From: Lophium mytilinum
Lineage: Eukaryota
Length of the DNA: 64,000 bases
Assembly (NCBI GenBank): GCA_010093605.1
Contig: MU004191.1
Location: 1,348,816-1,412,815, forward strand
Direction: 5' to 3'
The notes below the pieces were generated by a model that did no database searches, was not told the origin of the DNA, and was given only the letters and a program-made list of their open reading frames with translations. Positions 20,423 through 49,275 of this stretch are shown one piece after another; positions within the stretch are counted from its first letter, which is position 1; each line of letters opens with the position of its first letter. The position numbers were made by a program, and so were the translations under genes.

Positions 20423-20758
20423 TGTGGGAGGGTTGGTGGGGTGTGATGTGGTGGAGTGGAGAGCGCGTTGTTGGTGTTTAATGTTTTTGGAGAAGCGAGC
20501 GTGGGGTTCGATGGTGAAGAGGCGCGTGGAAGGTGTAGCCGAGAGAGAGGAGCTGAAACGGCGCTGGTGATGGGTTCTAGATAGATCCCACGACGATGAA
20601 GGGCTTTATGGCCAGTGTGAGGAGAAAAGCGGCTTCGCGTTTAATAATGCAATTGTATCTGGAATTGCTACAGCTATGTCCATCTGGAATCGGTTCAGAT
20701 GAAGGTGGGTGATAGAGTAGTAAAGAGTCTTCAGATTCGTACGCTGGAGGGGACAGAC

Positions 20759-20913
20759 GCCGGGGGCAGCGGATACACTTTCAATCTGTGTACACCCTGT
20801 TGATGCTGTCTGGGGTAGCCTCACGAGTGTACTAGTTGTCCAAAATGCCGTACTTTTCTATTGTTCGTAACACTGGAATGCTATGAATACTACGAGGCTC
20901 CTCACGCATCGGT
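20759..20913 (+). ncRNA. Dispersed structured element, copy 1 (candidate HDV-like ribozyme)
   Basis: Collinear similarity with 49130-49275 and conserved complementary segments (see findings). The repeat itself is clear; the ribozyme identity is inference. Confidence 0.4.
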
Positions 20914-21245
20914 AGGCGAGTGTACTATAACGAGGCATTGTAACTGAGGCCGACTTCAGCACGTTTGGAGTCTGCCCTCGCATCTACCAACTGTCAAGAC
21001 GGCACGGACTTTCCCTTTCACCGCCACAGTCACTGAGAGCAGAGATAACACGCTATCATGTGCTTTCGTGAGTTGGCGAAGCCTTGGCGAGCTCGGAAAG
21101 TCCAAGCTCGCCTCCGCCTCAGGCTCCCTCGTCGCCCCGCCTACCACAACACCTTCGCTTTCGACCAACTTTATGGTCGCATAGCCCTCACACTCACTCC
21201 ACAAGCCTTGCGGGCTACCCACGGCCGTCGGTGATCTTGAAAATC

Positions 21246-21973
21246 ATGGCCAAACCATCCACAGCCGCGAGGCCACAAGGCGCGCCCATGAGCAGGTGGA
21301 CGACCGGCTGGATCAACAACCCAGTGCAGCGATATTTCAACGGCTCCGGCTCGCAATCGACACCAACGCCCACGCCGGCAGCTGGCAATGCTTTCGGTAG
21401 AGGAGGCCTAGGCCTGGGTAAAGGCAAGGCTATGAAGCGCCATCGGTGAGTAAACAGACGCCCAAACAACCACCACCATGTTCAGGATATATCATGAACA
21501 TTGTCTAACGATCGCCCAGGCGCGTGCTGAAGGATAACATCCATGGGATCACCAAGAGTGACATCCGGTAAGTTCACATCCTCCTTTGCCGCATTGAGTC
21601 ACCTTTCTATCAGATTCCACGGTGCTGCTCGAGCCCGAGCCATCTTGTTTAGAAAGAGTTACTGTTTACGCTTCCTCTATACTGACTCGGTTGTCTCATA
21701 GTCGTCTCGCACGTCGCGGCGGCGTCAAGCGGATCTCCGCCGATGTCTACGAGGAGACACGCCTGGCTCTTCGCGCCCGCCTTGAAAAGGTACGCACAAC
21801 TACCTGACTTGCTGAAATCGCGATGCTAATTCCTATTTCTCCAGCTTCTCAAGGAGATGACAGCCGTGGTCGAAGTCTGCGGAAGGAAGACAGTCTGCGT
21901 GAGCGATGTGATCTTCGTGCTAAAGCGACTCGGCTCGCCGATCTACGGCTTTGGAGAAGCGAATAGAAGGTAG
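21246..21973 (+). CDS. Divergent histone H4-like variant
   Basis: Exons 21246-21445, 21520-21567, 21702-21789 and 21845-21973 give ...[48 protein letters not shown]...RKTVCVSDVIFVLKRLGSPIYGFG. Confidence 0.88.
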
Positions 21974-22732
21974 AGGTCGCTCCGTCCTCGGTCCTGTCCG
22001 ACAAGCTCGTCGACTTCTCGGGAACCTAGGCACCAACTGCCAGGTCGTCGACATGGAGTTCCTCTGTTGCCCCATAATTCCGGAGTTCTAGGATTTTTGA
22101 TACCTGCAGGATGATGAAGCTGTCTTTGGAGTTGTGGTCTCGAGTGTGCTCTTTGTACCTGTTCGATTGCCAGCGGCTGCTATGTGGTGGGTGGGAATGC
22201 CTTGAGGGACTTGTTGCCTAGGAGTATATTCTGCCTACAAGAATAATGAACAGTGAAATGCTTGGATGAATACATGACTTTTCACAACCCAATATATGGT
22301 ATATGTTTGCTCTGAGTTGCGGAGTTGTCGTCTCACAGATTGGGCTAGCTCCATTGAAGGCTTAGTAAGACACCAAAAGCAATTACGCAGTTGCCTCCCC
22401 TTCAACCTCAGCTTCATTCACACCATCACGCGTGAATGTTTCGAACTTTGAACAACCTATCTGACACAAGCAGCCATCAGTAAGCAGCAACCTCTGGCCT
22501 TCCAGGTATGCGAGTGTTCGTTGTCATGGCTCGCTTTGACCAGTCTACTATTTCATCCAACCTTACTTTCAAGTGCCCCTGCTCTACTCACTCATCATTA
22601 TCACGCATCTCCAATCGTCCATCTTCACAGTTCTAGCACACTTATGTCACTTATGCTATCTCGATGTCATAGCAGATTCTAAAATGTAACCAGTGCATCA
22701 AACCCAGGTTATTTTATAATCCAGTCAGCGCG

Positions 22733-23737
22733 ATGAATACACCTCCATGTACGCCTAGGAGGCAAAAGTCGCCTCCTTATGCTCGTTCTACAGTCGCGTC
22801 CTCCGCGAAAAGCTCAAGCAAGAGTCTAGCAGCACCCACAATTACAGCCAACTCAGCCGTTAAAGACCCGAGCACACCAAGTCGTTCTCCGAATCCCCAC
22901 CGCATCCCTACGCACTTTCGGACGCCACCCAGCAACGCTCCTATCAAAAGCACACCTGGTCAAGTATGCCATCTCGCCCGCCTACCCGCCGAACTCCGTA
23001 CCGTGATCTACAACTTCGTCCTCGAGCCTGAGCTCGAAAACCATATCAATCGGCCCCATCGTTTCGGCCGCTCTCTCCCCAGGACCCGTCTTGTCCGCGT
23101 CTGTCGCCGCATCCGCTACGAAGTTTCATATGAATTCTACCGTCGAGCCCACTTCAGCACCTACGTCGTCCACAACGACTTCTTCACGGTCATGAACTGG
23201 TTCCGCCGCCTTACCCCGCTTCAACGCGCTGCGGTGTCGCGGAATCCAAATCTCACTCTGGAGCTTCGGCTAAGCGCCTACCCCGGCATCATCACTAACG
23301 AGAAATACGCTTGGGATGCGACTCGGAACATTGGGAATATCTACGAGGTGTCGCCGCGCAATCGGGATAGGTTCCTCAGACTCGGGGGCTTGGTGACTTG
23401 GTTTACGTTTATTGCGCACCCGGCGCTCAGGGATGTCGAGTTCAGGTATAGCCTTGGGGCGGATAAGTGGCACTACTGGGGTATGAGTAAGCGTTTTGGG
23501 GCAGTTGATGTGGATGAGATTCTGCGGGGGACGCTCGGGCCGCTTTGGGGCGAGTCGGGAGCGCGAGCGCAGCTGGATGGAGAGCAGAAGGAGGCGGTTG
23601 TCCGGGGAGTCGAGAGAATGGTCAAGAGTTTGGAGGAAACGCAGGCTGCTCTGGGGGTGGATTTCGGCAAATGGCATCGTCGGGTGAAGCAGCTGCGGAG
23701 GTCCCTGCTTGGAAATGGTGTTGAGGGGTCCAGGTAG
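22733..23737 (+). CDS. Hypothetical protein with F-box-like LPAELR motif
   Basis: 334-aa ORF; HLARLPAELRTVIYNFVL followed by LVRVCRRIRYE, a pattern typical of fungal F-box-like/2EXR-type proteins. Confidence 0.6.
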   Translation: MNTPPCTPRRQKSPPYARSTVASSAKSSSKSLAAPTITANSAVKDPSTPSRSPNPHRIPTHFRTPPSNAPIKSTPGQVCHLARLPAELRTVIYNFVLEPELENHINRPHRFGRSLPRTRLVRVCRRIRYEVSYEFYRRAHFSTYVVHNDFFTVMNWFRRLTPLQRAAVSRNPNLTLELRLSAYPGIITNEKYAWDATRNIGNIYEVSPRNRDRFLRLGGLVTWFTFIAHPALRDVEFRYSLGADKWHYWGMSKRFGAVDVDEILRGTLGPLWGESGARAQLDGEQKEAVVRGVERMVKSLEETQAALGVDFGKWHRRVKQLRRSLLGNGVEGSR

Positions 23738-23979
23738 TGAAAACTAGCAGGTTTTATATGTCCCCTTTGACTATAAGGTAAACATTCCCTAAAGACTCTT
23801 ACCGATATGTTCGATCTCGCAATTTCATGTTGAAGAGCATAGAATCAGGCAAACGCAAATATCATCAAACTCATTGATATCTAGCTCGTCTATGCTAAAG
23901 TGTAAATCAGTGCCAATTAGGCCAAGGCTAACGACATCTCAAAGAAATGAACACGCATTAGATCGATCAATCATCTGGA

Positions 23980-25263
23980 TCATGTGGGCCCATAATGAGA
24001 CCCAGCATTCTTCATCTCATCCCAAATTTTCGGCAGCAACGCGTCACCATGAAGTGTACCGAATTGCCCCAGCCGCTCCGGCTCGCCTTCTTTCTGGAAA
24101 GCTTCCTTGATCACTCCGGCCTGACTTTTGTCCACGGGGCTCCAACTACTCGCCTTTGCAACCACCTTCTGGCCCTGCGTCTCCCCATGTGCTCGCCACA
24201 ACGAGTCGAACGGACTCCTGCCCACGCCCAGGTTCCGCCACACCTCGACCACAATCTCGATCGTTCGCAGGTTTGAGTGCGGAAGACCACGATAGCAGCA
24301 CGTAACCTGGTAGTCGGTCGAGCACTGGCCGCAGTACTTGACGTCCGACTGGAAGAACTCTTGCGGCGGCATCATGGAGAGAAATAGCTGGATGACCCAG
24401 ACTAAGTCTCTATGTCTGTGCTCTTTACTCCGGTGGCCCACGACAACCTGTGGCATTGCCCTCGTGATCTCAATCGCGATACCTGGCTGAGGCCGCAGTC
24501 TCAGGGGTATCGTAACAGTGCAGGCGGCGTGGAGTAAGAATTGGTTCGCCACGATCCGCGCCATCGTGCTGGTCTCCATCTGGCAGTCCACTCTCAGGAT
24601 CTTCGCCGTCTGCTTCGACAGGAACGTAAACTCATCCAGGGGGATCCCGTACTCCGGCCCGCAGAGGTGCCGGTTCATAGCCAGGCGCACGTGATGGTAG
24701 GCGAGCGTGAAGCCGCGTCCACAGCGCAGGAAGCTGTTGAACTGGGCACACTCGCGCTTAGTCTCGCGGCTGAAGTGCTGGGGCCCGCCGGCGTGGTCGT
24801 GGCGGTGGAATTTGTCGCACCAGGCGCAGAGCCAGTGGCTCGGGAAGGCTCGTTCGAGGATCATGGTGTTCGCCCGGCGGTCGAACTTGCTGTTATACGC
24901 CGCCCTGAGGAGGGTGTGCAGCGCCTGGGTGCCGACGGCGTAGCACGTGAAGCGCGAGCTTAGGCAGAAGGAGGCGGTCTCATGTCGGGACAGATAGGAG
25001 GCGATTTCTTGGATGATCTCGACGGGGAGTTTGTGGATGGCTGGCAGGTTGGTGGGAAGCGGGGCGGAATCGTCTGTGTATACTGCGGAGTCATGTTTTA
25101 TGTGTTGAGTGCTCTGCTCTTTCGGCTCTTCTGGAGCTGTTTGTTCCAAGATTTCGGCGGGTTCTTGAGTTTGCTTCTCTTGTAGTGATCGCAGACTCTT
25201 CTTATAAAATAATTGTGAGATGCGACGGAAGTTGGTATCAAGAGACTTATTGACTAGAATCAT
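23980..25263 (-). CDS. F-box domain protein
   Basis: IHKLPVEIIQEIASYLSRHETASFCLSSR; CAWCDKFH and CGQCSTDY Cys pairs; VWRNLG. Confidence 0.72.
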   Translation of the reverse strand: MILVNKSLDTNFRRISQLFYKKSLRSLQEKQTQEPAEILEQTAPEEPKEQSTQHIKHDSAVYTDDSAPLPTNLPAIHKLPVEIIQEIASYLSRHETASFCLSSRFTCYAVGTQALHTLLRAAYNSKFDRRANTMILERAFPSHWLCAWCDKFHRHDHAGGPQHFSRETKRECAQFNSFLRCGRGFTLAYHHVRLAMNRHLCGPEYGIPLDEFTFLSKQTAKILRVDCQMETSTMARIVANQFLLHAACTVTIPLRLRPQPGIAIEITRAMPQVVVGHRSKEHRHRDLVWVIQLFLSMMPPQEFFQSDVKYCGQCSTDYQVTCCYRGLPHSNLRTIEIVVEVWRNLGVGRSPFDSLWRAHGETQGQKVVAKASSWSPVDKSQAGVIKEAFQKEGEPERLGQFGTLHGDALLPKIWDEMKNAGSHYGPT

Positions 25264-25719
25264 AGTGATGTTAGAGTGTAGCAATGAGGCACCCGTAAGT
25301 TTACTTGAATGTTGAGACGGCACGGGTGGCTGAGGTATTAGTGGAGAGGTTCGAGATACCTCAGGGCTTTACATCTCTTTATGTTGTATGCCCTGATTCA
25401 TGAGCCAAGCGTCATCTGTTGGCAGGTGATTAGTGCATGCGGCGAAGCAGTTCCCAGGCACAAAAGGTCAGGCAGTGCAGGAGGGTGATACCTGAGGTGG
25501 ATTAGGCTGCTGGTGTTTAGTAGAGCTCTTGACTTCGCTTGTTGTGGGCTGAGCATTTCACCGGTCCCGCTAAATCGCCCACTAGTGCCCTCGTATCCAA
25601 TACCCGAAACCTGGCACTCAGATTGACGCCTTCATCAACCCCACGGCCTCAGCCACCGCCATACACCACAGAGCCACTCGACCCTCACCACCACTCCAGA
25701 CATCACTACCACCGAAATC

Positions 25720-26234
25720 ATGGGTTCCGTCGTCTTGCCACATCTGCCCACCGGCTGGCACGTCGACCAGGCCATCATGTCCGAAGAAGAGCGTCTGGTC
25801 ATCATCCGTTTCGGCCGCGACTGGGACAAGGACTGCATGGCACAAGACGAAATTCTGTTCCGGATCGCCGACCGCGTTAAGAACTTCGCCGTGATATACC
25901 TCTGCGATCTAGACCAGGTCCCCGACTTCAAGCAAATGTATGTATCTTCCCCGGCCCTTGCGCATCCACTGCACAAGGCAACACCATCATGTCAAGAAGC
26001 AAAAGCTAACTGAGAAACAGGTACGAACTGTACGACCCCATGACCATCATGTTCTTTTTCCGCAACAAGCATATGATGTGCGATTTCGGCACCGGCAACA
26101 ACAACAAGCTCAACTGGGTTCTCGAGGACAAGCAGGAGCTGATCGACATCATCGAGACCATTTACCGCGGCGCGAAGAAAGGTCGTGGTTTGGTTGTGTC
26201 GCCGAAGGATTACTCTACCCGCTACCGATACTAG
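25720..26234 (+). CDS. DIB1: U5 snRNP thioredoxin-like protein Dib1/Dim1
   Basis: MGSVVLPHLPTGWHVDQAI...VPDFKQM|YELYDPMTIMFFFRNKHMMCDFGTGNNNK...KDYSTRYRY; one intron at about 25938-26021. Confidence 0.96.
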
Positions 26235-27202
26235 ACGTGCGTGGAACCCCTCTCGTCCTCATACAGCATTATTATAAGGACGACATTGAACATCTACGAA
26301 AACGGAGCTGGGTTGGTGATGAGGGAGGTTCCGTTAGAATTTAGGTCGAGGGTCGGTTTCACGGGGATGATGCACTTGAGAGATTACGAGGCGTTTCGGT
26401 TTGTCTCACTTTATCTGAGAGTATGATTACGATCAATATGCTAATGCGGATTGCCATTCAAGAACTTCCTCTTACTGAAGCACTTTGTAAGTGCTACTGA
26501 GTGCTACCTACTAACAGTGTTGTAGCCCATCCTTATTAACCCCAGCAAAACCGTGACTGTCGTAGAACTCCCGTACCCGAAGTCAACGTGGCATCTTTCG
26601 TAGCCTGGGGTCCGGGGTCTGATATCGCTCCTAACTAACTCGAAGCCATAGTCTCGAAGCTCGAGCATTATGAGACGCTACAAATAATCTCACAGTTTTC
26701 CTCGCGCGCTCGCTTTCGGCATATCATGATATATCATATCCGTTCCTACGCATATCGCGCGCTGAGGCGAGCAAAGCGGCACTCGGAAACTATGCAAGTG
26801 TTAAGCAGGCCCTGTCAGACCCTGAATTAGATCATAGTCCAGGTCGCATTCAAATGGATGCTGGGAAGGCCTTTGCTATACCTCCATGAATACTCGGTTG
26901 GGGTCTATCTGACCGTTTGCTGACCGTCCGTTGCCATCCGCTAATCCTCCGCCATCTAGCTCGCGAAATAATCTTCAGTTCCATGCGTTCTGATTGTACT
27001 CCCTATCAATGCTAACTCCAGATAAGGAGAATCAAGCTTCTAATCAGTCAACGAAATACCTAACGCCGAGTTGCGATGACGGGAGATATCCTGTCGTCTA
27101 GACTACAGGTCAGTATACTATCAGATGCGTCCCGACTCAGCCTCACGTACCTTTGGTATTCTTTTCAGGCATAATTATTCCAAAACTCTTTCATGATACT
27201 AA

Positions 27203-27730
27203 TCATGAGAGAATCTCATTTCCAAAAACCAGGTTGTCATAACCAATCATCACTTTTTGGTTTTGTATTATGAAATGCGACTCGTCCTCTTGAGAAATCG
27301 TTCAGCGTCTCTTGATCTTTTGGAATTCCACAGTCGAACTCACTATCAAGCGCCATTACAAAGTCAACATCGTTCATCACCTCCCTCCAGTCATCCAAGC
27401 TATCGAACCACAGCTCTTGCACGCCATCATAGTCAAGCGTCGGTAAACCCGCATCTTTCACTGCGCTTCTCAACTCGGGCGTGATATGGTACTGCCGGGA
27501 ATCATCAACATCATCCTTACTCCAAAGGCTAGCTAGGGCTAGAAGGTAGCTTGGTTGCTTACTTGGTTGTATCTGCGGATGTTCTCCCTAAAGACGTCGT
27601 TTTGCATCAAAACTTGAGCATTCCTCTCGGTCCACCACCGATGGAACTCCTCGTCAGTGCACTTGGGCGAGCGCGTTAGGTACACGGTGACTTTAATGTA
27701 TTTTGGAGGTTGCGGAGAAGCAGGAGCCAT
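27203..27730 (-). CDS. EthD-domain protein
   Basis: VYLTRSPKCTDEEFHRWW...IRRYNQ|YH...DYDGVQELWFDSLDDW...DESHFI; two introns. Confidence 0.8.
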
Positions 27731-28380
27731 TCTTTTTTACTTTGTGGTAGGATGTTTTTGGGTGGTTTTCATGCAGGACATATAAAAATGTCGGAAGAGA
27801 GTGAGGCGCGACGACGTACCCTGCAATGGGCGGTGAGTGGATGGAAACACGAGCAGATTTTTGTACTTGGGCCAAGTCCCTACCTAGCACTCTTCAGGTG
27901 GCATGCCGGTGTTTAGACGGACCACTAGGACTGAACTGTCACCTGCCACAGGCGTAACGCGCGTATAAAGATTGGGACTGTGATACCATGCTTGATTTGG
28001 CTGAGAGTGATAAAACACAGGCCAAGCAGAGGCGGGGAAGTTGGATGAGAAACAAGGGCTACCTAGCACCGCGTGGGGCAATTCCACGACGCTTGTTTCC
28101 TGATTTGACTTCCACCCTCTTCGATTAACCCCTCCCTTTCATTCCAGCATCTGCTTCTCTGCCTCAATTGGCTCCTATCAAAACTTCTCCAAAGGAGGTT
28201 CATAGCACACAGGCTGTATACATTCACCAAATAGGATTAGCCGCAACAATGACGTATGATTAACATTTGGGGGCTGGAATCGGGCAACCTCAATACTCAT
28301 GCTTCGATCACTTCCTCGCTTTCACCTTTTCTAGTCATCTCATTTCAACTTTGCATTTCACTCTTTTCTATGCGGGTTTC

Positions 28381-29799
28381 ATGGCTGAAAAGGTGGATAA
28401 AACCGCTGAGCTTGGTCGAGATCATGAGAACACAACTCCCGGAGAATCTGACGAGTCAAGCCATGAGCAAGACGGTGCAGAGAAACCTAGCGATCAGAGT
28501 CATAATAAGGAGGAGGTCGAGGGAGACATAAAACACAACTCCACGCGTGGAAACGTGCTTTTCGCTTTTGGCCCTAACCGGTCGTACTTCATATACACGA
28601 ACCCAAGGTGGCAATAGTATGTGTCTGCTTCAGACTGGGTCAGGTATTTTGATATCAATCTGACGCCCATACAGCAGTGGTCCTGGAGCTGTGGTGAAGG
28701 CCGTACCAGACACAATACTTCCCCCATATGCTGTCTCAATCACCCCCGAAGGCGACTTATTCTTGGCGTACAAAGACGAGCACCTCTCACCAGCTTGGAC
28801 GTGGATCAACGCTCCAGACCAAGGTAAGGCTTTCTTGCCTCGGCGTTAGCTTCACAGTCAGAATATCTCATTCAATCATCCTCTAGTGATCGCGACTAGC
28901 GCTGCCGAGCAATGTTTGTAGCCACTCCTTACCACCTCGTGCGATTCTGATTAGAAATAGGGGCGCAGCAAAGAACAGCATATAAACAGTTATTCGACAA
29001 GATTGCAAAGTCTGATGCTGGCTCCCTGGAGAAACTCCGCAACGTATCCGTAACCATCGGTCCTAAGGGCAGTTACTTCGCGCGCTCATCAACTGGCACA
29101 CTACAACACAGACTCCCACCCGACCTAGCATCCTCAATCGCGACCCAAAAGTCCGCCAACCCGCCCATCGAGCCCACCCAAGTCGCTCTCGGCATCAACG
29201 GAACGTGGATCGCACTCTGGTCCGACGACACGTGCACATACAACATCGGCACCAACGCGCAACTCGAGGAGAACCTCTGCGATGAAACCAAGGGCCGGGT
29301 TGCATTCGCGGCGCTGAGCGTGCACAACGACGAGCATTTCTTCCTCGCATATGAGAACGGTGCGACATGGTATTGCGTGCCTACCACAAGCGACAACTAC
29401 ATCGGCCACGCTACGAATGCGTACATGCAATCCCGCGCTCAGCAGGACGGCACGACGTTTCAGTTCAAGCGTTGGGACCCGCGGAGCACAACGCATGTGA
29501 CGATATCGCCATCCACGAAGTATGAGTTTCCGGCCCATCTTCACAAGGAGGACGCAGGGCCGCGTGCGTGGCGTCAGATGGTGCAAACGCGCCTTTTTTC
29601 CAGTATGGAGACCGATGCGATGAGGAGACTGGGGATGCATAGATTGGCGAGAAGAGAGAACATGGTTGCGATGGGGTCGGCGGCGGTTAGTACGGCCGTT
29701 GTCTGTCGTGCTTTGCAGCTTTCTCGTGGCGCTACGATTGTGGCGGCGGGAGTGGCGGCGGGCGGGACGGGCGCGCTGTGCTTGTTGTTGCAGAAGTGA
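28381..29799 (+). CDS. Hypothetical protein with repeated (F/I/L)G-P-x-x-S-Y-F beta-strand motifs and C-terminal hydrophobic segments
   Basis: FAFGPNRSYFI, VTIGPKGSYFARS, VALGINGTWIALW and AALSVHNDEHFFLAY across exons split by introns near 28617 and 28823. Confidence 0.55.
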
Positions 29800-30054
29800 G
29801 GAAGGAAGATAAGAAATGGTCAGTAGTTACTGGAATGGAGGCTTGTTCGTTTGGAGATATGTTCATGGTACGCGATCTTAATGTGGTCAGGAACGCAACA
29901 TTTGTCCTTTATCAAAAGAGGCTGCAACGGCAGACAATCCTACACAGACTGAACCCGAGGTTCTATATCCCCAATCTAACTTCTACCCCCAACGCACTAC
30001 CCAACCTACTCTCATCTCTCACACCTCTTCCTCCAAACCCCACCATCTCTTCCC

Positions 30055-32306
30055 TCAAACCACCTCCGCCAACCTCCCCACCTCCGCTACCGCCTCCTCA
30101 AACCCATCAAACGCCCCAATCGGCAACCCACTCTCCGCCAGCACCCGCCTCCCCACCTCCTCATTCGTCCCCCTCAACCTCACCACCACCGGCTTCTCCA
30201 CCCCAACCTCGCGATACGCCAGCACCACCCCGGCCGCAATCATATCGCACAGCGTCAGCCCGCCGAAGATATTCACAAACACAACCGCGACACGGGGGTC
30301 CGCGAGAACCAGGCGGAAGCTAGTCGCGATAGTCGCGGCCGTGGCCTTGCCGCCCGTGTCGAGGAAGTTCGCGGGGGATGTGTGCGGCAGGCGGGTGGTT
30401 AGGACGTCGAGGGTGTTCATGGCGAGGCCGGCGCCGTTGACGAGGGTGCCGATGAGGTTTGTAGGGGAGGTGGGGGTGGGAGGGGAGGGCAGGGGGATGT
30501 AGACGATGCCAGCGGCCTCGGCTTCGGTTTCGGTAGGGGATAGTGCTGCGCGGAGGGCATGGAGGGTTTCGTGGCGGTACGCGGACTTGAAGGCGGCGTC
30601 GTCGAAGGTGAAGGAGGGGGTCGAGATGTTGAGAGTGGAGGAGGATGGGGGGATGGAGAGGTTGACGGTTAGGGTGAGGGCTTCTTTGGATTTGTAGAGG
30701 TCCCAGAGGTCGGAGATGAGGGAGGCGGCGGCGGCTTTGGCGGCGGGTGGGGCAGCGTCGAGTTGGAGGTGCGAGAGGGCGGCGAGAATGGTGGATTTGG
30801 AGGGGCCGGTGCGGTAGTCGAAGGGGATGCGGCGGGAGCGTTTGGGGAGGTGCTCTGGGTCGGTCGTTGGGGAGGCTAGGACGCAAGGGCTGCGGGCGGA
30901 GCGGTCGATGGTAATGCCGACTAGGTGGGTGTCTGATGATGAGGGCGGGCTTGGGGAGACGGTGATGTTGTAAGGAGCGAGGAGCTCGGCGGCTTGATCT
31001 GTGGTGATGTGGAGACCACGAGATTGAGGCAAGAGTTTCGAGCGAGAGAATGATGGCTGTGGGCGATGAGGCGTTTGGGAAGTCTGGTATGATCTTCGTT
31101 GGTTTGCAGCAGACTTTTGCTAGCATAGTGTCAGACGTATACGGCTGTAAGTAGGAATGAAGCTTACAATCTCTTGAACATTCCTTCCACTGCTTGATAG
31201 GAGTCCTTTCATCACATTTCCAAACTTGGCTGGATGATCTACCATAGTAACCCCGGCTTTTTCCAGAGCTTTGTACTTACTCTCCGCATTGCCCTCTCCA
31301 ATTCCAGTCCAAGCTCCTGCATGTCCCATGACTTGGCCAGGGACAGCTTGGAAGCCACCGATCACGGCTGCGATGGGCCTGATACAACTAGTCAGAGAGC
31401 GAGATAGGAGTTATCGAAGGAATATACATACTTGGGGTTCTCAGTCCGCTTTTTATAGTCTTTGATCCACTCGGCTGCCTCCTCCTCCGCAGTCCCACCC
31501 AACTCGCCTACTAAGATGATTGCCTCGGTGTCCTCGTCCGTCTCAAAGATAGTGAGGCCGTCAACAAAATTAGTCCCAGCAATCACATCGCCACCCATTC
31601 CTATACACAAGCTTTGGCCGAGCCCAGCTCTTGTCAACGATCCAACAGTTTCGTAGCTCAGGGTTCCAGATTTGGCCACGATACCTATATGGCCAGGGGA
31701 GAAGGTTGACAGGGGTTGAAATCCAATCCTGCATTTCCCAATTGCTGAGATGATTCCAGGGGCATTAGCGCCGACTAGTCGTGACTTTGACTGAGTGCTG
31801 AGAATCGAGTGTATCTGAAATTCTTTAGCAACAGCTCATGGAAAGAAGAAGTAGTATCATAATACCCGCATAACATCATGCAGAGGGACATGCTCCGCAA
31901 CCGCTACTATCAAAGGGATCTCTGCTTCAATCGCCTCCTCTATAGCTGACGCAGCATGCTGAGCTGCTACAAAGATGGCCGTTGCATCTGGGTTAAGCTT
32001 CTCTTTGGCAGCCCTCACACTGGGCAGAACCGGAAGACCAAGATGCTCTGATGTGGTGCCAGGTTTCACGCCTCCAACGATATGGGTGCCCCAGTCGATT
32101 GACTGCTGGGCATTTGCTGTTGCTTGCTTTCCAGTGAAGCCTTGGTACATTACCCGAGTGTGCTTCCCAATCTTAAGGTTCGGGATGGTTTCCGCGTATC
32201 CATTGCGAGAGATAGAAGTCGAGAACGAACGAGGACCGTATTTACCAGCATACGCATGCCTTGAAGGATGTAAGACAATCCTTGGCGAAATACGGAGAAT
32301 TAACAT
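30055..32306 (-). CDS. Succinyl-CoA synthetase-like alpha-beta fusion protein, mitochondrial
   Basis: Alpha-subunit motifs RVMYQGFTGKQAT, IVGGVKPG, AKSGTLSYE and VMGHAGA (phospho-His) are spliced in frame to beta-subunit motifs FDDAAFK, IGTLVNGAGLAMNTLD, PANFLDTGG, VNIFGG and PVVVRLRGTN. Confidence 0.85.
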
Positions 32307-32943
32307 GACGGGCACGTGCTCGCTAGATGAGCAGTCGTATGGATTCTTGAGCAAAGGAAACGACCGGCGCCCTTTAGTCTCGTGGAATGTCTATAAGAAG
32401 GACCGGGCGTCCGTATGACTAGGGCCAGTGCAATTGACTCTTTCTGCTACTTTTGAGAGGAGTAAGATTGAATTTGAGACGCGGGAATACCGAGGAAATA
32501 ACGACTCGTGACAACAGCACTCGGCGGGCGACCTCGGGAAGTCGCAATTGGGGTCAAAATCAACGGAAATATGAGGTAAAATCCAGAAAAGGACGACGCG
32601 GTCTTTCTATCTATTTTAACGTACGACGACTGTCAATTTCATTGGAAAATAAGAAGCAACTATAGAGAAATGTAGAAAGGGAAAGTCGTCGAGTGACGTT
32701 GGAGCTTGCCCGTTGGAGCTTGGACGACGTTCCCCTCCATTTATCCCCACACTTTGGTCCGATCTTGTTCCTGATGGATCGGCACTTTGTCTCCTTGTCA
32801 CCTCCCAACATTCCACCTCAACGAAGCTGCTTGCATATACAGCTTGAAGCGATCTGCTACAATCCCATCCCTACCTCCTCTCTACATGATCCACACGACA
32901 AACTAGCACTCTCGCCCAAAGCACCCCCATAAGTACCCCCACA

Positions 32944-38711: not shown

Positions 38712-39138
38712 GGGAGTTGGGTTTTCTTCTTTTTTCGAAGGGTTTTGGATGGCGTTTGGATATTGGGTGATCTGATGGGTAGCTTTAAGGAACGAGATCT
38801 AGCGCCCGATATCTCTATATCTGGAGCATGGGCTTGATATATATAGAGCATTTTTCACGCTGTTACTGAATTTGTTTCTCCTCACCGTTGGCTGCGACCT
38901 ATAAGTTTGGGGTGTCTTGCATCTTCGATTCAGCTACATCATGTCTGGTATAAAGCACGTGAGAATTCGAGGTGAGTACGCGACGGGCTCGAAACTTTAT
39001 TCTATCGACCGCAAAAACGCCAAACCTGGTATCATAAATCTTCGTAGCGCGCGTCCCACGCCCGCCTTCCAACCGAACTGCGATCCGTTCCTTTTTCTAA
39101 AATGCGCTCAACACTCCAAACGCAAAAGCTTGCTCATG

Positions 39139-41278
39139 TTATTGCCCTAGCAGTGGCCTAAACGTCTCAAGATCCTCAGACGCCCCCTCCTCGATCATAC
39201 TGCGAATCATGTCGTCACTCGCAATCGAGTTCCAATGGTGGATGCTCATCGACTTCTTCGAGTTAAACATGACGCTCGCGACGCCGCGGACCTGCTTCAG
39301 CACCGTGTTGGCGACCGGCCACCAGGCGGATAGGCTCTGCAGCGAGCCGGTGTCGAGGCGGATGAGGCCTTTGATCTTCTCGTCTTGGCCGTCTGGGACA
39401 AGGAAGGACCAGTAGGAGAGGTGGACGACTGAGGCGACGACGACGACGCATGTGAAGAAGGGGGAGTGCCGTTGGAGCGGGGTGGGGAGGGTGATTAGCT
39501 TGGAGATGTCTTCGGCGGCTTGGAGGCACTTGGCTGTGTGGATTTCGCGCGCTTGCGTTGGGAGTAGGATTTGGCCGGGGTCGACGCAGACGGTGACTTC
39601 TTCAACGTCGCCGAAGCCGAGGTTGGAGCGGGGGCGGTGGAGTTGGATGGTAGCGCTGTTACACGGAGTTAGCTAGTGTTTGGGTGTTTAGTATGGGATG
39701 TTCTTACGCGCAGATGATCATTTGAGCTTGGAAGAGTATCTCATCAACGTCCCTGTCGTTGTGAAGCATGTCTCGTTTGAGTTTTGGTAGATGGAGCGAC
39801 CAGTTAACCAGGTCAGCGTCTGTGATATCAACCATGTGGTATTCCAAATTGTCGGCTCTGCTGACTTCAAGAACTTTACCCATGATGCGCACGGCGTCGA
39901 TGAGGTACGTAAAGGATGAGAATTGACACTCTTCGGTAGCAAAAGCGGAGTCATCATAATCTTGAAGCGAACGGGTGAACGGAATGTGCTGTTATCTGGA
40001 GTTAGCTTCGAGTGGGAAGAAAAGGCAGGAATAGTATTATAGCGATATTGGGTGAAGGCTCTTGGGATATCATGAACAGGGAATAAGCTTACCCCGGAGT
40101 AGTATTCCGCTTCCTCACAAGGTAAAGGTACGTCAGTCACCACGTCTCGAAGGCGGAACGGGATGCGAGGGTTTACTCCAGCAAAAAGGCCATTAATTAC
40201 GTATAACGACCACCAGGTACGCCTAAGACACTCTTCAAGTATTCTATCGTTTGAGCCGTGCATCAAAGCAAAGTCTCCTCGGTTCAGTCCAATCTCGAGA
40301 GCTATATTGATTGCCACATCGAGCATCTGGCCAGCTCTTTCCGGATCGTTGTTGGCATGCAGACCAATGGCAAAAAGCAGCAAAGTTTGGACTGAGAAAG
40401 CGTCCTTGGGGAGATTGTGCTGAGATAACATCCGTTTCAGGGCATCCTTGTACATTTCAGTGGGAGCTGCTGGGAGGAAACACGATCCAATGTACTGAAT
40501 AGCAAGTTCCAAGTGTGGAATGCGTCTTTGTTTTAACAACTCCACTTGACGATGGTGAGGCAACAAGAATGGATGTGAACTGTAAAAGTAGACATAGAAC
40601 GCGCCGGTTGTGCTCGCGACGCCAGAGTTCATAGAATGTGTTGGATTCAGGGATGATGGTAATGACAATTGGTTGGAAATTGGAGGCGACGCGAAGGGAT
40701 TTGTGTTGATAAGGCCGTCATAAGATCCGTGCTGTGGAGTCCCCATTTGACTGATGGGCACTGTATCAGAGTTGAAGTCAAAAGCCGGAGTTGATGCGTG
40801 AGAAGAACTGAATCCCAAGACGCTTCCCATGGGAGTTTGCACAGGCAATGCGTTCTCTTGACCTGCAGAGTTGTAAGAGAGATGCGCACACGTGACTACC
40901 TCTCAACTGATTGGAGCATTTACTAGATGTCGATTCGCCAGCCTTGAGTTTCCTCTTCCCTTTCCAGCCGCGGCGTGACTTCACGTAGGAGCACTCGACG
41001 CCATCGGCTCTACACCTTGTACAGCGTACACCACCGTCGCACTTGAGATGGCGGCTTCGACAGGCCACGCAGGCGACAGGAACCGACGTTCTGTTTGCGG
41101 ACACATTTCGAGCATTTCGAGCTGGCTGCGTCGCAGTAGGTTCGGGTAAACCGTTCGGATGAGCCAAAGGAGCATCTGGTGAGGAGTTCGAGGCAGTAGA
41201 AGCGTCAATAGACCACCACGAAGAATCTCCAGCGGCAGACACGGAGAGCCGAGAAGACGTGGGCATGTGAGGCTCCAT
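39139..41278 (-). CDS. Zn2Cys6 transcription factor with fungal-specific TF middle-homology domain
   Basis: ACVACRSRHLKCDGGVRCTRCRADGVECSY; YFYSSHPFL; EECLRRTWWSLY; LPCEE; several introns. Confidence 0.88.
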
Positions 41279-41531
41279 ATCCCATTAACCAGGTGTTGAA
41301 ACCACGATGAATCAAGAGTGGGCTTCAAGCTTGAATATAGAGGGGCGGTATAGGGATGAATGCGATCGACAAAGCGGTGCCGGATAGATGGACTCCAGGG
41401 TTGACGTGATCCTTATGAGTGGAGAAATTCAGCCCTGTGACCCTTGAGGGAAATTAGATAATCAAAGCCACCATGTAACGCTGTACCTTGCAGCTGAGGC
41501 TCCAAAACCTTTTCCAGCTCTTACAAGGCTT

Positions 41532-41660
41532 CAGCTCTTGGGCACGTTCGTTTTCTGCATCTTTCATCAAGGCTGGTTCCGCGATTAAATGTGCTCTTCG
41601 TAGTCTAGAATAGAATAATGCCTAGGCACAGTCGGACCGACTGTAGGGCTATTCTACTAC
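41532..41660 (+). repeat. Structured direct repeat, copy 1 (partner 43535-43660)
   Basis: agctcttgggca...tccgcgattaaatgtgctcttcgtagtctag...ctaggcacagtcggaccgactgtaggg; the 27-bp core differs from copy 2 at one base. Confidence 0.85.
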
Positions 41661-41804
41661 CCCAGTCTACACAATCCTGACTCCTCTGCTCTTTCATCTT
41701 CCCCCAAAAAACATCTAATGCTATGTCTATAGTCAATCTCATTCAGAGAACAGGGTTGACGCTGTCTGAGGTGGCCTGAACAGTTTTCAGACTGTGAAGA
41801 CTAC

Positions 41805-43157
41805 TCAAGCATTTTGAGCTTTACACTCTGCATCATAAGCCTTCAGCTGCTCCATCTTCATATCTGCGAATTGCTCCATCTCCTCTCTTGTTTCCTTGTC
41901 AAGCACATCGTCTCCTGGCCTATGGAGCGCAGCCCAATAAATCGCATCAACATCAAAACTCTTCCTAATTCCATAGTCAAACCAAAACCTCCCCGAGTCC
42001 CAGGAACCGCGCATGCGTGTAGATAGAAGTACAGTATTGTGGCTCCCTTCCGCCTTCGCCCTCGCCCTCGCTTCCACCCTTTTCATCGCCCGCAAGAACT
42101 GCTCCATTCGCGGCACGTAATGCGCCACGAAAGCTTCCATCGTGTAGCGCTCAAGCCACATGTCCGGACCCAGCAAGAGCAACCACCATGGCGGATCGTA
42201 CGCAAATTGTACTGGCAGTGTGTTTGAGAACTCAAAATCTAGGACAGCCGTGATGCGCAGAAGTTTTGGGTCTGCAAGCATGTTCGCAATCCGTAGGTCG
42301 TCGCAGTAGGGTTTGAAAGGCCCGGTGTCGGCAAGACAGTAGCGATCGACCGACTGTTTGAAGCGGTGACGGGCGATAAAGCGCCTCTTCGCATCTTCTC
42401 TACTTGTAACGAGGTTTCGTTGCGTCCGCAGATGGACAAGATGCTCGTCAGCGAGAGAGTAGAGAAAGGCTTTTGCTGAGGTAAAAGGCGCCGCGGGGAA
42501 GCCACTTATAGGGTAATTCGACACAACAGACGCTAATTCGTTCATGTTGTAGGTAAAGGGTCTCTCGCTAGCAGTCCACTCGTTCGAGGACGGCTTCCGG
42601 GATATCGCTCCAATAGCGGAGAAGTCTAGCTGGGACAGTTGCAGCATATAGTCGGCCAGTTGCTTATAGATATAATCTAATTTCTCACCGTCTACGTTCT
42701 CCGCAAGGATCACCTCTTCTTGTTTAGTTTTGGTTGGCTTCTTTAAGAAGAGTTCTAGCGACGTTCCGGGCATAAAGTCCATGATAATAAATGGACCGAG
42801 CTGCTGGGGACTGTCTTCGGTCATGCCCCAGCTGAGCACTTGGGGCACGGGGATCGTTGTCCGCTCACGCAGATAATTCAGGATCTGTGCTTCATTTCTA
42901 ACCTTTTACTCCCGGAGAATTGTAGCTGTGTGTCCTGGTTTTGGAAAGCGAACTAGAACTTTCCGCCTATCGCCGAATCTCACAACGAAACTGAGGTTGA
43001 ATGAACCTTTGAGGTAGCTGTCAAGCTCGGCTGAGCTGCCTCCTACTTGACTAGCGGCGAAGGCAACGATCTCTTGCTTTGTATCGATGGCCTTAGATAC
43101 CCAGGCCTTGAACTCATTGTCGCAATCTGTTTCGGCTAGCTCGTCGAATACAGTCAT
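41805..43157 (-). pseudogene. APH/choline-kinase-like phosphotransferase with one in-frame stop
   Basis: GSFNL, VRFPKPG, E*KVRNEA, TTIPVPQV, FIIMDFMPG, DDLRIANMLAD, AVLDFEF. The two ORFs share a frame and are separated only by TAA at 42906-42908. Confidence 0.82.
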
Positions 43158-43534
43158 CTCCCCGTCAAGCCAGAATCAGATGTGGGGAGTGATTACTTCT
43201 GGGCAGAAATAAGATCAAGAAGTGATTGTGGTTGTTCGACATGCATCATCGGAGTTGCCAATGAGCTCGCGAGAATGTGCTGTGCCGCAACATATTTGAG
43301 GGCCAGTTCACTCGAGACCAGGGGCCGCAATCGGACCTTCTGAGCTAAGGGTCGAAAGTCTTTCCAGCTGTTAAGACGCGTCAGCTCCTGTAGTATTCTA
43401 ATGCGAGGACCGTGTTGTGTACAATGGCTTGACGCCGTCTGAAGCCCCCCAGTAGGTTTCCAGAAGCCGTGAAACTACAGTTTCAGTGATCGTGACAGCA
43501 CCCTAGGCCACCTCAGACGCTGTCACAGCCCCGT

Positions 43535-43660
43535 AGCTCTTGGGCATGTATGTTTGTCAACGTTTTTTACGAAGTATCAGGATAGCATCCGCGACAGAAT
43601 GTGGTCTTTGTAGTCTAGTGACTAGGCACAGTCGGGCCGACTGTAGGGTTGTTGTACGCC
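43535..43660 (+). repeat. Structured direct repeat, copy 2
   Basis: agctcttgggca...tccgcgacagaatgtggtctttgtagtctagtgactaggcacagtcgggccgactgtaggg. Confidence 0.85.
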
Positions 43661-45069
43661 CCTTTTTCAGCTGCCCAGAACCCAACCTCAAACAGCATCA
43701 ATGCGAAAAGAAAACTGCTTCTTGAGTCCCAATCAGGAAATAATGTCCTTCCTCCGCATACGGTCTCCGTTACCGCTCACGCCTCGCAACGGCGTCGGGT
43801 AAAATTCCACACGTCCGTCGAACAAAGGTTCGGTGACAGCTTCCATCCCATCGGCCCCCCACAAGAAATGTGGAGGCGGCGCCACCACCGGGGATCCGCT
43901 GCAAGGGCTCCACCCACCCCCCTGCCAGAAGTGAGATTTAAAGCAGCGAGACGGGCGGAAATAGCCACGAGGTTCCGCCCCGCTGTCACTCTTTTGGCCC
44001 GACACTACCCTCACGCAACCACCCTCTTTTGCTTCTCTGATGAACCAGTTTGCTGTCCTTAAGGACGTGGCATTAGTCCCGCATGGTCTGCGCCTTTGGG
44101 GCCGCCCAGGCCAAGAGAACCTTGGAAGTGAACAGGTACAGCCGCAGTTGATGGACCCAGCCCATTCAATCCAGCATGCGGAGAAACAGCATCATCGTCC
44201 CTTCACCCAGTGCCACCACGCCGGGACTGAGCGAGAATGAGGCAGTGGTGGTGCTGCACTCAAGTTGAGGCACGCCGAGGTCTGTCTCCGGGCTTGACCC
44301 CTCCGAGCATCCGACCTTCAGCGCAGTACCCAGCATCGTCTGTTCACGAGGGAGTGGCGTGGGCGGCGAGAAGTCCCATATGGTAGGCAGAAGCCACTGC
44401 ATGAACCAAGGCGGTGGAAGGCATCGGGTGAATAAACCGAGACTCTCTTCCCTAATTCAATTCTGACAGCTGTGACTCTACTTTCTCGTTGTTTCACTTC
44501 CTTCCTCCAATCTCTCGATCTGTTTCGTCATATAGCATTGCAGCGTATGCATACCGGTCACATCATCAGGGATTTCGCTGTCAAAAAATCTGCTCCTCAT
44601 CCTCTCTCATTGCCGTGTCAGGACGCTCGCTATGCCATGCTCTCCTTGCAGCAAACAGGTACCTACTAAACACTACCAACTCCTATCCCGCGAGCTCGCT
44701 GCCGTCCTACCACGACTACTGGAGCTACCTAACAGCTCCTAACAGCCCACCTTCGTCCAACGCGCGTCTCAAATTGCGCGCAATCTAACCCCACACAGAT
44801 CTGCGGCCTTGGCTAGATCGAGCCGCCGTTCCGTCCATTTCACCATGGTGATCCATCTCGATGCTCGGGAGAACGGGCAGCACCGCCTCCCCGCACTCGT
44901 TCGCGTCCAACGTCTGCGCTGGTTTTCCTACACGCGGTGCACCCAGTCCAGACCCCGTCGCCTGCGCGATAAAAGCCTTCACAAGTGCGCCCGCGCGCTG
45001 GAACCTCGGAGGTGAGCTCCGTGGCGCCACCGCCCCTCAGGACAGTAGAAAATGTTCCCTCTTAAGCGT

Positions 45070-46216
45070 TTAGCTCGTATTCAGCGGCGTGGTGAAGTCC
45101 GAGTAGTTGCAGTACTCGACCCACCCGTCCAAGTCCATGAGCTTGATGACGGTGCTGAAGTTCTCGGCGTCGGCGTTGGCGCCGCAGTAGCTGTCCACTT
45201 CGGACTTGGTCACTTTTTTGCCGGCGTCGGGGTACTCAATGTGGAAGACGGGCTTGTGGTGCGTGATGAAGGCGGTGAAGTTTGAGCACTCGGAGTACTG
45301 GGCGCATTGCTCGTTGACGCTGAAGTGGACGAGGGGGAGGACGTCGTCGATGATGGCGGCGGCGTTCTTGAGGCCCATGGAGAGTTTGTGGGCGAGGGTG
45401 GCGTTGGAGAGGAAGGAGAGGAAGGAGATGCTGTCGGCTGGGGTGAGTGAGAGCCCGTTGGTGTTGGACTTCGGGTGGGTGTTAGTTATGTTGCATATAC
45501 TTGTCAATCTACACTCTGTTTTGACGCTTTGTGGGAAAGAGAGGTAGGGAGAAGGCGGGGAGAGAGCGTACATAGCCATCAACGTTATCTGGATCAACAC
45601 CATCACACCCCTTCTGCGCGGCTAGCTCTACCCTCTTCGTCATGATGTTCCGCACATTCGTGCTGTTAAGATTGAGCCAGTACTCTCCGGGCCACCCATC
45701 CATCTCCTTCCCTTTATCCGCATCCTTGAAGTCGCCGCTATCTGGTCTGTCTGGCTCATAGCTGCCCGCACTGAAGTAGCAAATCACCTTCTTTCCCAGC
45801 TTGTGCAGCGTAGATATGACCTCGGCGCTGTTCGTGAAGAGGTCGATGTCATACACCTCGACGTCCGGCGTTATGGATGTTGCGTCGGACGACAGCTCCA
45901 GCGGGTTCTGCAGCACAATCTGCCAGGTGCTGTTGACGGTTGGCGCCCATGTGGGCTGTACGGTGGGCGATGGGAGGGGAGAAACAGTGCTTGTTGGAGC
46001 AGAAGAGGGTGACGAAGGGTCGTTGTTTCCGCTCCCTTTGCGGGTTAAACCAACACCGAGGCCGATTGCGAGAGCGATGACAATAATGATCACAACGGCA
46101 CAGGCGATGAGGCTGATACGTTTACGGCGGCTGCGATGCTCAATTGGGGCGTTGGATAGTTTAGAAGACATTGTGGTGTGGAGTAGGGGGTATTCGCTAG
46201 GAGTCGTGGAGACCAT
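45070..46216 (-). CDS. GH114 endo-alpha-1,4-polygalactosaminidase (Ega3-like), type II membrane anchor
   Basis: TM after RRKR; WQIVL, VYDIDLF, KVICYFSAGSYE, GWPGEYWL, KGCDGVDPDNVDGY|, GLKNA, VNEQC, KPVFHIEYP, STVIK. Confidence 0.88.
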
Positions 46217-47268
46217 GGAGAGTGTCTTGAGAATTGAGAGGCTTTGGAATATGATGCGAGTAGGCGTTACAGTTATATAATAGGATCAGACCATATAAGT
46301 TGCTGCGACACAGGAGTGAGTTGCTCCTCTGCAAGTGCTAGTGGTGCAGACGTCCTCTCCTTTCACGCGACGGTCGAGGCTGAGCAGAGCAGCAACCCGA
46401 GCGACATTGAAAGAACAAAATCTAGAGAGCTAGAGAGCTAGAGAGCTAGTACCTTGGTAATGAAGGATTTTAGCGTATTGAGTTGGAAGACTAACGTGCT
46501 CCTCCTGGCGCGAGTGTGGCTGAGCAGGCAAGCTCGGCCAGGGAGCTTTAGATTGCGTGGGCTGATGATATTCTACGATTATCATACCGGGCGCGGAACT
46601 GGTCGTGTATGAAGAAAGAGAGATACCCAGGTATGGCAGAGGGCGATGCGCTGGTGGGAGTAATGGCGACAGCATGGTCAAGAATGCGTGCATAAAGGCA
46701 ACAAGGGAGGTTTCAAACAGCTGCAATATATTCTAGAAGTGCAACTGTAGGCGAGCAGCTGCGCCTCATCTGGAGAGTAAAAGCATTGGAAGGGTTCCTG
46801 CGGGCACGGGCCGATTACTAGCTAGACACGGGGCTCATCGCAGCTAGTACATACGCTATGAGCCTTCAGCTACCATTTCTTGTCCCTTCTCTCAATCTCC
46901 TACAGCTCGCCACGAAGGCCTCGATCACAGATCGGCAGCATGGTTAAACCCCGGCATCCAGTATCATGATCATGCCACCACAACAGTTGTGCAACCTAAT
47001 TGGCTTCCCAGCAAAGTCGTTCGACCTTCCCTTTTGACTTTTGAACAGCCGAAAAGGGGCATTCGGGTTGTTTTGAGACAATCTGTTCATCCGGGTTTGG
47101 CACTTGCACTCGATCTTATAGTTCATAAAACTATATCTTGCCGTTCCACTCAAACTTTGCTTCTGTCTACTATTGCAGACATGGCGATATTATGATGCTA
47201 GCAAACTATACACTTCGCGCCTAGCCAATCCGCCGAGTAGTCATAGATAGAAAGCGTAGAAAATGCCA

Positions 47269-48430
47269 CTACAACCTTACCGCCATCGTCAGGGTGTACG
47301 TGCGGGAGTACCCACTCATCGTGACCCAAAGCATTGGAGGATCTGTCCTGACCTGCTCCGTAGTCGCGCCGCTGATCGAGGTGACCGGGCCGGGATAAGT
47401 CACGGGAATCGTCGTTCCGAAGGTATTGCTATCGGAGGTGATCATCACTCTTAAGGTTGACATGCCGTATGCTGAAAGATTGTACTTGATGTTGGGGTTG
47501 CAATGTCGCGTATTTGACGAATGACGAATTGCAGGGTGAGATCATCGTATTTAGGGGTAGTGAGTGGCCAGGTGGAGCTGCTCTTGTTAGAGAGGTAGCC
47601 ATGAAGGCTGGGGGAATACTTACAGCCTTGTATCTCTGTGACGACAGTTCCAACCCAAATTTGAGGCAAGGAGAGCTGCTGTGAACTTCTATTCACCTCG
47701 GCGCTTGCGACGTCGGTCTGCCTTAGGTGTTTTTGGTGTATCTTGTACCTGTAAACCAAAAGCCGGAATGTCACTCTATGGATAGGATGCAACCCGAGAA
47801 GATGCCGTGTGTTCGTTGCTCCAGCAACTGCAAGAAGATTGTCAAAAGCTCCACTACCTCCAGACGTGTTGATCCATTCGGCCGATGTGCATGCTGGAAC
47901 ATCAGAATCGTAATAATTGGTGGTTGCCCATCGAGGCACGATCATCAGACCATCATGTCCATTCGCAGCGAGCGTGGTTGTGAGCGGCCAAGATGGATTC
48001 TCAGTATTCAACAGCACTGAGCGGGTATTATCTCCTATCACATACTTATTATTAGAGACTTAGTTAGTCATCCATACCCGTATAGCGTCTCCATTGTGAA
48101 CTCCGGTAATGGCAAGTAGGGTTAGACCATTCACGCTGAACCTAACGGCGTTCCATATACCCACTTGCTTGAGCCAGGCAATGTTGAAGGTTATCTCCTT
48201 CAGAGTATCCGAGTACGTAGCATCGTTCAGATCTTCGTGTGTGCTATCAAAGGTCAACAAGAGCTTCGCAGAAGGCCCCATGAATACTTACGTTGTGTGA
48301 GAACTATGCGAAAACGCGTTGAGATTCGATGGGGTTGCGAGCTATTGCTTGAGTGCATCAAGCTTAATACATGCCAGACTCCATGTGTACGACGTTGGTG
48401 TGGTGAGCTAAACGTTTGTGCTACTCCCTA
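47269..48430 (-). pseudogene. Degenerate C-terminal fragment of an Agd3-like polysaccharide deacetylase
   Basis: Fragmented frames: NLNAFSHSSHT|HEDLNDATYSDTLKEITFNIAWL, AITGVHNGDAIRVW, GDNTR, MIVPRWAT, EWINTSGGSG, NTRHLLGLH. Stops and frameshifts; no 5' half visible. Confidence 0.78.
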
Positions 48431-48461
48431 GAGGCTGTTGGAACTAAAAAGCGGTATGCGG

Positions 48462-48513
48462 ATGAGGAAACTTGAGTTGTCGGTATGAGGAAACTTGAGT
48501 TGTCGGTATGAGG
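48462..48513. repeat. Perfect 23-bp tandem repeat (2.3 copies)
   Basis: atgaggaaacttgagttgtcggt x2 + atgagg. Confidence 0.9.
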
Positions 48514-49129
48514 GTTTCCCCAAGCGGCCATGTCACGGGCTTAATGATAGATGTATATATGCTTATGTACCCTTATTGAGCATCGTTTGAGGTCCTCTGG
48601 TATGTTATTGCTATTCAAGAAGGACCAGCTTTGACAAGCCTGATAGTTCTCCGGACCACCCTTCTGAAAGTATATGAGGACCTTGGCTTCCCTCTGCAAA
48701 GCACTCGCACTCGACTTACAGCAAACACCCTGGCCTCAGCACGTTCACAGCACAGCTACACACACTAGAAACCTCACACAACACAGTATCTTAGTTGACA
48801 ACGAAAGGTATGTGTCTAGGCGCCAGAGCAAGAAGAAGGTTGAGTTGAAAGCCGCAGCCGAGATAGAAAAGAAAGAGGAACGGGTTTGCAATGCACCTAT
48901 GGTGTTCATCTAGTTCTATAATGACGACAAGCTGGTCCATTAGAACTAGTTGGAGAACACTAAGTTTCTTCGACGCCGCGGGGAGGAAATGAAGAAGGCT
49001 CTTCTAGAGACCTCAGACGGCGTCGAACTGCTGCCTGAGTGTGCCACCTTTTTCTTGCCTAATTCGTAGCGTGATATGTGCACTTGCCTGCCACTGCCTG
49101 GGGTTCCCTGGTATAGGATACTAATAGAG

Positions 49130-49275
49130 ACCGGGCAAGCGTATGCACTTCGAATCTGCGTACACCCTGTTGACGCTGTCTGGGTTAGCCTCACAAGCTT
49201 ACAAGTCCTCTAAAATGCCGGTCATCTCTCCTATTCAAGATGCTGAAAATACTATGAGGCTCCTCACGCAGCGGT
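49130..49275 (+). ncRNA. Dispersed structured element, copy 2 (candidate HDV-like ribozyme)
   Basis: Homologous to 20759-20913: tacaccctgttgacgctgtctgggttagcctcac...aaaatgccg...aatactatgaggctcctcacgcagcgg. Confidence 0.4.

Follow-up and report, generated by a model that had tools for sequence, protein, structure and literature searches.

Setting and extent of the repeat

The window analysed here, a stretch of 64,000 nucleotides (nt) from contig MU004191.1 of Lophium mytilinum, is gene-dense fungal nuclear DNA in which two short stretches resemble each other: copy 1 at 20759-20913 and the core of copy 2 at 49130-49275, both on the plus strand. These two stretches, and the repeat family to which they belong, are the subject of this study. 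Copy 1 lies between the MOZART1 gene (minus strand, ATG at 20422, about 340 nt away) and a plus-strand ATG at 21058, 146 nt downstream, and copy 2 between an Agd3-like gene (minus strand) and a plus-strand ATG at 49475, 198 nt downstream, both full copies being situated in divergent intergenic DNA. A third, decayed fragment (41735-41789, plus strand; nhmmer E 0.0012, blastn E 0.011) covers positions 23-79 of the model and is located about 15 nt beyond the stop of a minus-strand open reading frame (ORF). Relative to the minus-strand gene on its left, each of the three copies points the same way.

In a global alignment, 20759-20913 and 49130-49275 are collinear, with 116 of the 155 columns identical, 9 gap columns, 16 transitions and 14 transversions, and the ungapped matches between them comprise 104 nt at 78% and 36 nt at 86%. 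Searches of the 64-kb window gave E ~7e-26 with blastn and E 2.5e-55 and 8.1e-51 with nhmmer for the copies, and no similarity was found when the flanks of copy 1 and copy 2 were aligned. An earlier, sequence-only reading of this DNA had described two collinear, intergenic stretches on the plus strand, which the alignment and the gene context confirm.

That reading had further treated the two copies as a pair. Both are real, yet they represent only a small part of what is present, as seen after aligning contigs onto 20700-20970 at a likeness of at least 80%. Three contig sets were used, of which X1 and X2 are one sample, possibly the source of the window DNA, and are not independent, while X3 carries a different organism label (a close relative) and shares 0.97 of words. 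On copy 1, 31 contigs of X1 were aligned, one at 99% or more, six at 90-95% and 24 below 90%. The fit was partial in 29 of these 31, and 0.91 of what was aligned continued into unlike sequence. Figures for X2 were identical to those for X1, and X3 provided 20 contigs, with 0.85 of what was aligned continuing into unlike sequence. The contigs are 2 to 28 kb long, and the pieces of the family sit at differing places within them. The family is dispersed, its copies have differing flanks, and their number is of the order of a few tens per genome; contig counts give copy numbers only approximately, since one copy may split over two contigs, as the X3 orthologue does. Scans of metagenomes with degenerate core patterns of 25 and 35 letters gave no matches, and the 35-letter pattern does match both window copies.

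Contig depths were even in X1 and X2 (121-188) and ranged from 5 to 476 in X3. Such uneven depths would fit RNA, which is only a guess at the nature of X3, and no claim on expression or start sites is drawn from them. One X3 contig of 1098 nt and depth 475 spans the MOZART1 side as far as 20770, which falls within the left edge of copy 1, and a contig of depth 5 continues from 20748. If X3 is RNA, the stop at 20770 might be a transcript start.

The extent of the element follows from comparison with the other copies. To the left of 20760-20768, their loose-end consensus resembles the sequence left of the start of copy 2 (about 18/22 and 19/25 letters agree, judged by eye), and the left similarity of copy 2 reaches back to a TGGGGYTCCC motif at ~49099, while the flank comparison revealed no comparable left part beside copy 1. 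Because this left similarity was found at copy 2 and not at copy 1, we regard copy 2 as the fuller element of about 179 nt (49099-49277, plus strand), its left boundary near 49099 being placed from the loose-end consensus, and copy 1 (155 nt) as a left-shortened member devoid of the ~35 nt present in copy 2 and other members. The span of 49130-49275 first assigned to copy 2 is thus a real core, from which the similarity within the family extends ~35 nt further to the left. In addition, loose ends right of 20850 and 20859 in other copies resemble the middle of copy 2. Since the other copies share this copy 2-like middle, the middle is conserved in the family and is not the free variable insert for which it had been taken, and the 8 extra bases in the middle of copy 1 are an insertion. 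At the right edge of copy 1, an exact direct repeat of 11 nt was observed, with 20824-20834 recurring at 20917-20927 on the plus strand. As the repeat carries the minority G found at 20829, the stretch 20917-20927 was copied locally: a part of copy 1 has been duplicated on the spot, and the repeat does not represent a target-site duplication.

Position beside genes raises the question of a cis-regulatory module under selection in gene-flanking DNA, for instance a portable promoter or start-site element, which would be compatible with a mobile origin. The location of the full copies in divergent intergenic DNA, upstream of the plus-strand ATGs 21058 and 49475, the placement of copy 1 upstream of the MOZART1 ATG as well, and the orientation shared by the three copies all speak for such a role. 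However, the neighbouring genes are functionally unrelated, and the ~30 copies, which are 80-95% alike and carry indels along their whole length, suggest drift and not constraint. The position near ATGs says little by itself, because a gene-dense fungal genome puts nearly all intergenic DNA near start codons. We consider a regulatory function quite unlikely. Paralogous promoters were rejected as a separate candidate because of the same number of copies, ~30.

Among the genes of the window, Pfam matches were obtained for MOZART1 (minus strand), a GNAT acetyltransferase, an Agd3-type deacetylase (minus), a GH114 hydrolase (minus) and an ORF with a RanBP1 domain (plus), and further for a protein kinase, CTNNBL, NPR2 and a fungal transcription-factor domain. 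Of a 560-amino-acid query from the CTNNBL ORF, 73% aligned with 100% identity to a protein named from Lophium mytilinum, the next named relative being Glonium stellatum at 72%, which places the window in that species or a very close one, a Dothideomycete. The MOZART1 gene (20156-20422, minus strand) has an intron inside the Pfam domain, so that its long frame matches only profile positions 15-40 of 47, and an N-terminal exon starts from the ATG at 20422. The Agd3-type deacetylase and the GH114 hydrolase are adjacent at 45509-48059 (minus strand) and match PDB entries 6nwz and 6oj1/6ojb, the matches of both pieces to solved Aspergillus proteins being only moderate. Such a side-by-side arrangement is known from the galactosaminogalactan cluster of Aspergillus.

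Other repeats are present in the window as well. Two tandem units of 87 nt, 74% identical, are located at 51871-52044 inside the long ORF with the RanBP1 domain and probably encode a peptide module that recurs in a protein resembling nucleoporins. Two direct repeats of 63 nt (5882-5944 and 5966-6028) are 84 nt apart and 78% identical. A second short repeat of ~130 nt occurs at 41530-41665 and 43533-43665, exactly 2000 nt apart, its best 52 nt being 81% identical. It holds a kept palindrome, CACAGTCGG-N-CCGACTGT, with GTAGTCTAG flanking, and has DNA fold z-scores of -2.4 and -2.0. A further small element, either dispersed or hairpin-forming, may be represented here.

Coding potential, folding and the proposed ribozyme

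The family is non-coding. Each of the six frames is interrupted by stops in at least one of the copies, the reading frame is not maintained across the 8-base indel by which the two differ, and 19 variable places (common to at least two contigs and away from alignment ends) are spread 5:7:7 across the three codon phases. The TAG at 20833-35 is kept in most family members, no common variant removing it, and a protein-space search with the minus-strand frame through copy 2 returned no candidate. The same stops and frame-breaking indel agree with the first assessment of the two stretches, in which no convincing coding potential had been recognized. A small protein or upstream ORF was also tried as a candidate and rejected, because the 49-codon frame that is open in copy 2 is both shifted and closed by a stop in copy 1.

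With regard to RNA structure, the sequence-only reading had proposed a self-cleaving RNA similar to the hepatitis delta virus (HDV) ribozyme, i.e. a nested double pseudoknot on the plus strand that would cut 5′ of G20764. Such a cut might serve to trim the transcript of a retroelement at its 5′ end. The pairings on which this proposal was built do exist, all of them at the coordinates given. In copy 1, the helices P1, P1.1, P2 and P4 follow each other in the right order, with G.U as the first pair of P1, and a loose descriptor (7-bp P1 starting with G, then GG with CC in the loop, 6-bp P4, 5-bp P2 and no P3) recovers exactly this arrangement as its one solution. Cytosines are present in the J4/2 linker, and the sequence is multi-copy, as ribozyme-bearing retroelements are.

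In the HDV-like class, however, a P3 helix of about 3 bp abuts P1 and closes loop L3 of the double pseudoknot, and here a long gap separates the would-be P3 from P1. When a 3-bp P3 was required, the descriptor gave no solution in either copy. Even with P3 left out, there were no solutions in copy 2 unless a bulge was allowed, the bulge having been admitted as a weakness from the outset. By chance, the loose topology occurs at about 3%: dinucleotide shuffling of copy 1 produced it in 37 of 1000 sequences, and it was present in 23 of 762 tiles of 166 nt taken as background from both strands of the remaining window. A covariance-model scan of the 64 kb found no Rfam family of any kind at gathering score, and when the threshold was relaxed to E<=10, the surroundings of copy 1 gave two weak, unrelated matches that fall outside the element and those of copy 2 gave nothing, with no ribozyme family among the matches.

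Variation within the family points in the same direction. C20797, a proposed P1.1 partner, reads A in 8 X1 contigs, and 6 have A in place of G20805, the closing base of P1. The similarity of the family extends ~35 nt upstream of the proposed cleavage site. Out of 30 predicted pairs, a single one is changed on both sides between the copies, 20775-20789 (A-U to G-C; 49145-49159 in copy 2). It belongs to a hairpin, H1 (20773-20791, plus strand; 5 bp, 9-nt loop), which occupies the bases of the 5′ strand of the proposed P2. The substitution from G.U to G-C that had been put forward in favour of P2 is therefore present, but the same change supports H1, which excludes P2. With ordinary fold z-scores in addition (-1.13 and -0.34 for the two copies), we regard an HDV-like ribozyme as highly improbable.

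Those z-scores, calculated from minimum free energies against shuffles, refer to the plus strand of the core in copy 1 and copy 2, respectively. On the minus strand the values were -0.93 and +0.70, and the full copy 2 gave -0.01 and +0.11 on its two strands. No predicted stability above that of shuffles was found on either strand, in the core or in the full copy 2. This includes a long imperfect hairpin on the plus strand (20804-20822 with 20894-20911), which contains the proposed P4, competes with the proposed P1 and does not exceed shuffles in stability.

H1 and the long hairpin could alternatively be functional parts of a small structured RNA gene family or of a polymerase-III short interspersed element (SINE), with copies transcribed on their own and spread by retroposition. 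The compensatory pair in H1 would fit such an origin, as would the better preservation of the ends than of the middle between copies 1 and 2, and a central TTCGAA within the loop of H1 in copy 2, which we take to resemble a B box. Yet copy 1 has TTTCAA in place of this motif, the middle is kept too in other copies, and the full copy folds no better than shuffles on either strand. The copies show no tRNA-like structure (0 tRNA-like genes when they were searched), no Rfam family, and no A-rich or simple-repeat tail at either end of copies 1 and 2. An RNA gene or SINE thus appears unlikely. Compared with fungal SINEs in general, the element is likewise short, dispersed and non-coding, with one copy lacking its left end, but it differs from them in having no tRNA-, 5S- or 7SL-like head and no tail.

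Class of the element and comparison with introners

On the basis of the above, the two stretches are members of a non-coding dispersed repeat family of ~180-190 nt, most likely copies of a small non-autonomous mobile element. The suggestion that they might be the end of a mobile element came close to this, with the difference that the repeat is a whole small dispersed element and not an end. Its copies would have been brought to new places by machinery supplied in trans, and would have drifted since then.

Assignment to a known class of element was approached through its ends. Terminal inverted repeats were not found, the only inverted pair being internal, 11 nt long and 82% matched, and no target-site duplication is visible in the flanks of copy 2. 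Fungal miniature inverted-repeat transposable elements, such as mimp of Fusarium, resemble the element in being short, non-coding, gene-flanking and present in dozens of copies, and differ from it precisely in possessing what is missing here, terminal inverted repeats and a target-site duplication (the latter as judged at copy 2). A solo long terminal repeat was considered and rejected, as the conserved part extends beyond any TG...CA pair and no target duplication was seen.

Candidate splicing signals were also recognized. The hexamer GTGAGG at 20900-20905 on the minus strand begins 8 nt within the conserved part and recurs unchanged at 49262-49267 in copy 2; we take it to look like a fungal 5′ splice site. 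Some other copies have CTAAT followed by TAG near the far end, as judged from the reverse complement of the loose-end consensus, in which agreement is only 0.64. On the minus strand of copy 2, no match to a branch point was found. These splice-like signals do not fix the strand of the element, because the plus strand also offers weak candidates. Among the aligned sequences, no joints were reported over 20700-20970, which, with contigs as the only material, says nothing about splicing.

In two reports, the introner-like elements of Dothideomycetes are described as spliceosomal introns that occur in many copies and exceed regular introns in length (PMC3609843; PMC4457414). For Lophium mytilinum, Table 5 of a further survey lists 4 introners found as introns, with BLAST-back adding 11 inside genes and 2 outside, to a total of 17 (PMC9860276). 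According to Table 9 of the same survey, the mean introner length in this species is 200.75 nt compared to 86.39 nt for other introns, with 109 spliced-out and 41 spliced-in reads, all sites GT-AG, and a value of 0 under 'Introner More Stable?'. Dataset S2 of another study lists one family for the species, fam2, with 4 copies, class Unknown and GT-AG in 4/4 (PMC12130899). There, the splice sites of fam2 are at columns 23 and 224, the repeat occupies columns 32-221, i.e. 190 columns in a 202-column intron, and the family is annotated as 'co-opt both' with a weak 3-nt duplication; a family of Mytilinidion resinicola is listed with the same repeat columns. No paper was found to pair the species name with 'introner' or 'intron gain' in its main text, the species appearing only in supplementary tables.

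The dimensions agree. The 179 nt of copy 2 together with the 8-base insertion of copy 1 make 187 columns, and an element of 179-187 nt fits a repeat that takes up 190 columns of an intron of 202. Like Dothideomycete introners, the family is a short, non-coding, multi-copy sequence in unrelated loci of a Dothideomycete, about twice as long (~180-190 nt) as the ordinary introns of the species (86 nt), and it has no inverted ends, clear target duplication or class of transposable element. Differences exist as well. The three window copies are outside coding sequence. The copies of the family are 80-95% alike, not near-identical, and the folding of the element is not unusually stable (z from -1.13 to +0.70), although the survey row for this species likewise gives 0 for stability. 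Whether the family is the single introner family listed for Lophium mytilinum seems to us evenly balanced, and this identity we only infer because the published files gave no sequence. Elements of the introner type that land inside genes are removed from the transcript by the spliceosome via GT and AG sites carried by the element or borrowed from the flank. The three window copies, in gene flanks outside coding sequence, need no splicing and are probably inert.

Several observations weigh against a mobile element of the introner type. Mobility is argued from dispersal, because termini and target-site duplications cannot be defined from two full copies, and the contig counts behind this dispersal are inexact as copy numbers. 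The link to the published family draws only on species, size, copy number and the absence of a classification. All three window copies are outside recognisable coding sequence, compared to 15 of the 17 inside genes in the survey, and the copies differ by 5-20%, unlike the near-identity of active introners. Finally, the splice-like signals are ambiguous, with GTGAGG kept on the minus strand, copy 2 lacking a branch point, and weak candidates on the plus strand.

Taking all this into consideration, the two stretches represent an ordinary short dispersed repeat, which probably belongs to an introner family that is already catalogued but undescribed. A short dispersed repeat is routine genome furniture, and a new variant of the ribozyme class in fungi, which the HDV-like reading would have meant, is opposed by the evidence. 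Wider interest attaches to the repeat only because it probably samples an ascomycete introner family in intergenic DNA, as copies outside genes bear on whether such families move as DNA or via spliced RNA. A more speculative and rather doubtful extension is that the repeat is the Lophium/Mytilinidion introner family and a mobile element in its own right, inserting outside coding sequence as well, beside the start regions of divergent gene pairs. If this were true, the spread of the family would not depend solely on reverse splicing into transcripts, the model proposed for fungal introner-like elements, and the full set of copies, with its 5′-shortened members and the conserved hairpin H1, would offer a handle on how ascomycete introners move, a point entered in the surveys as 'Unknown'.

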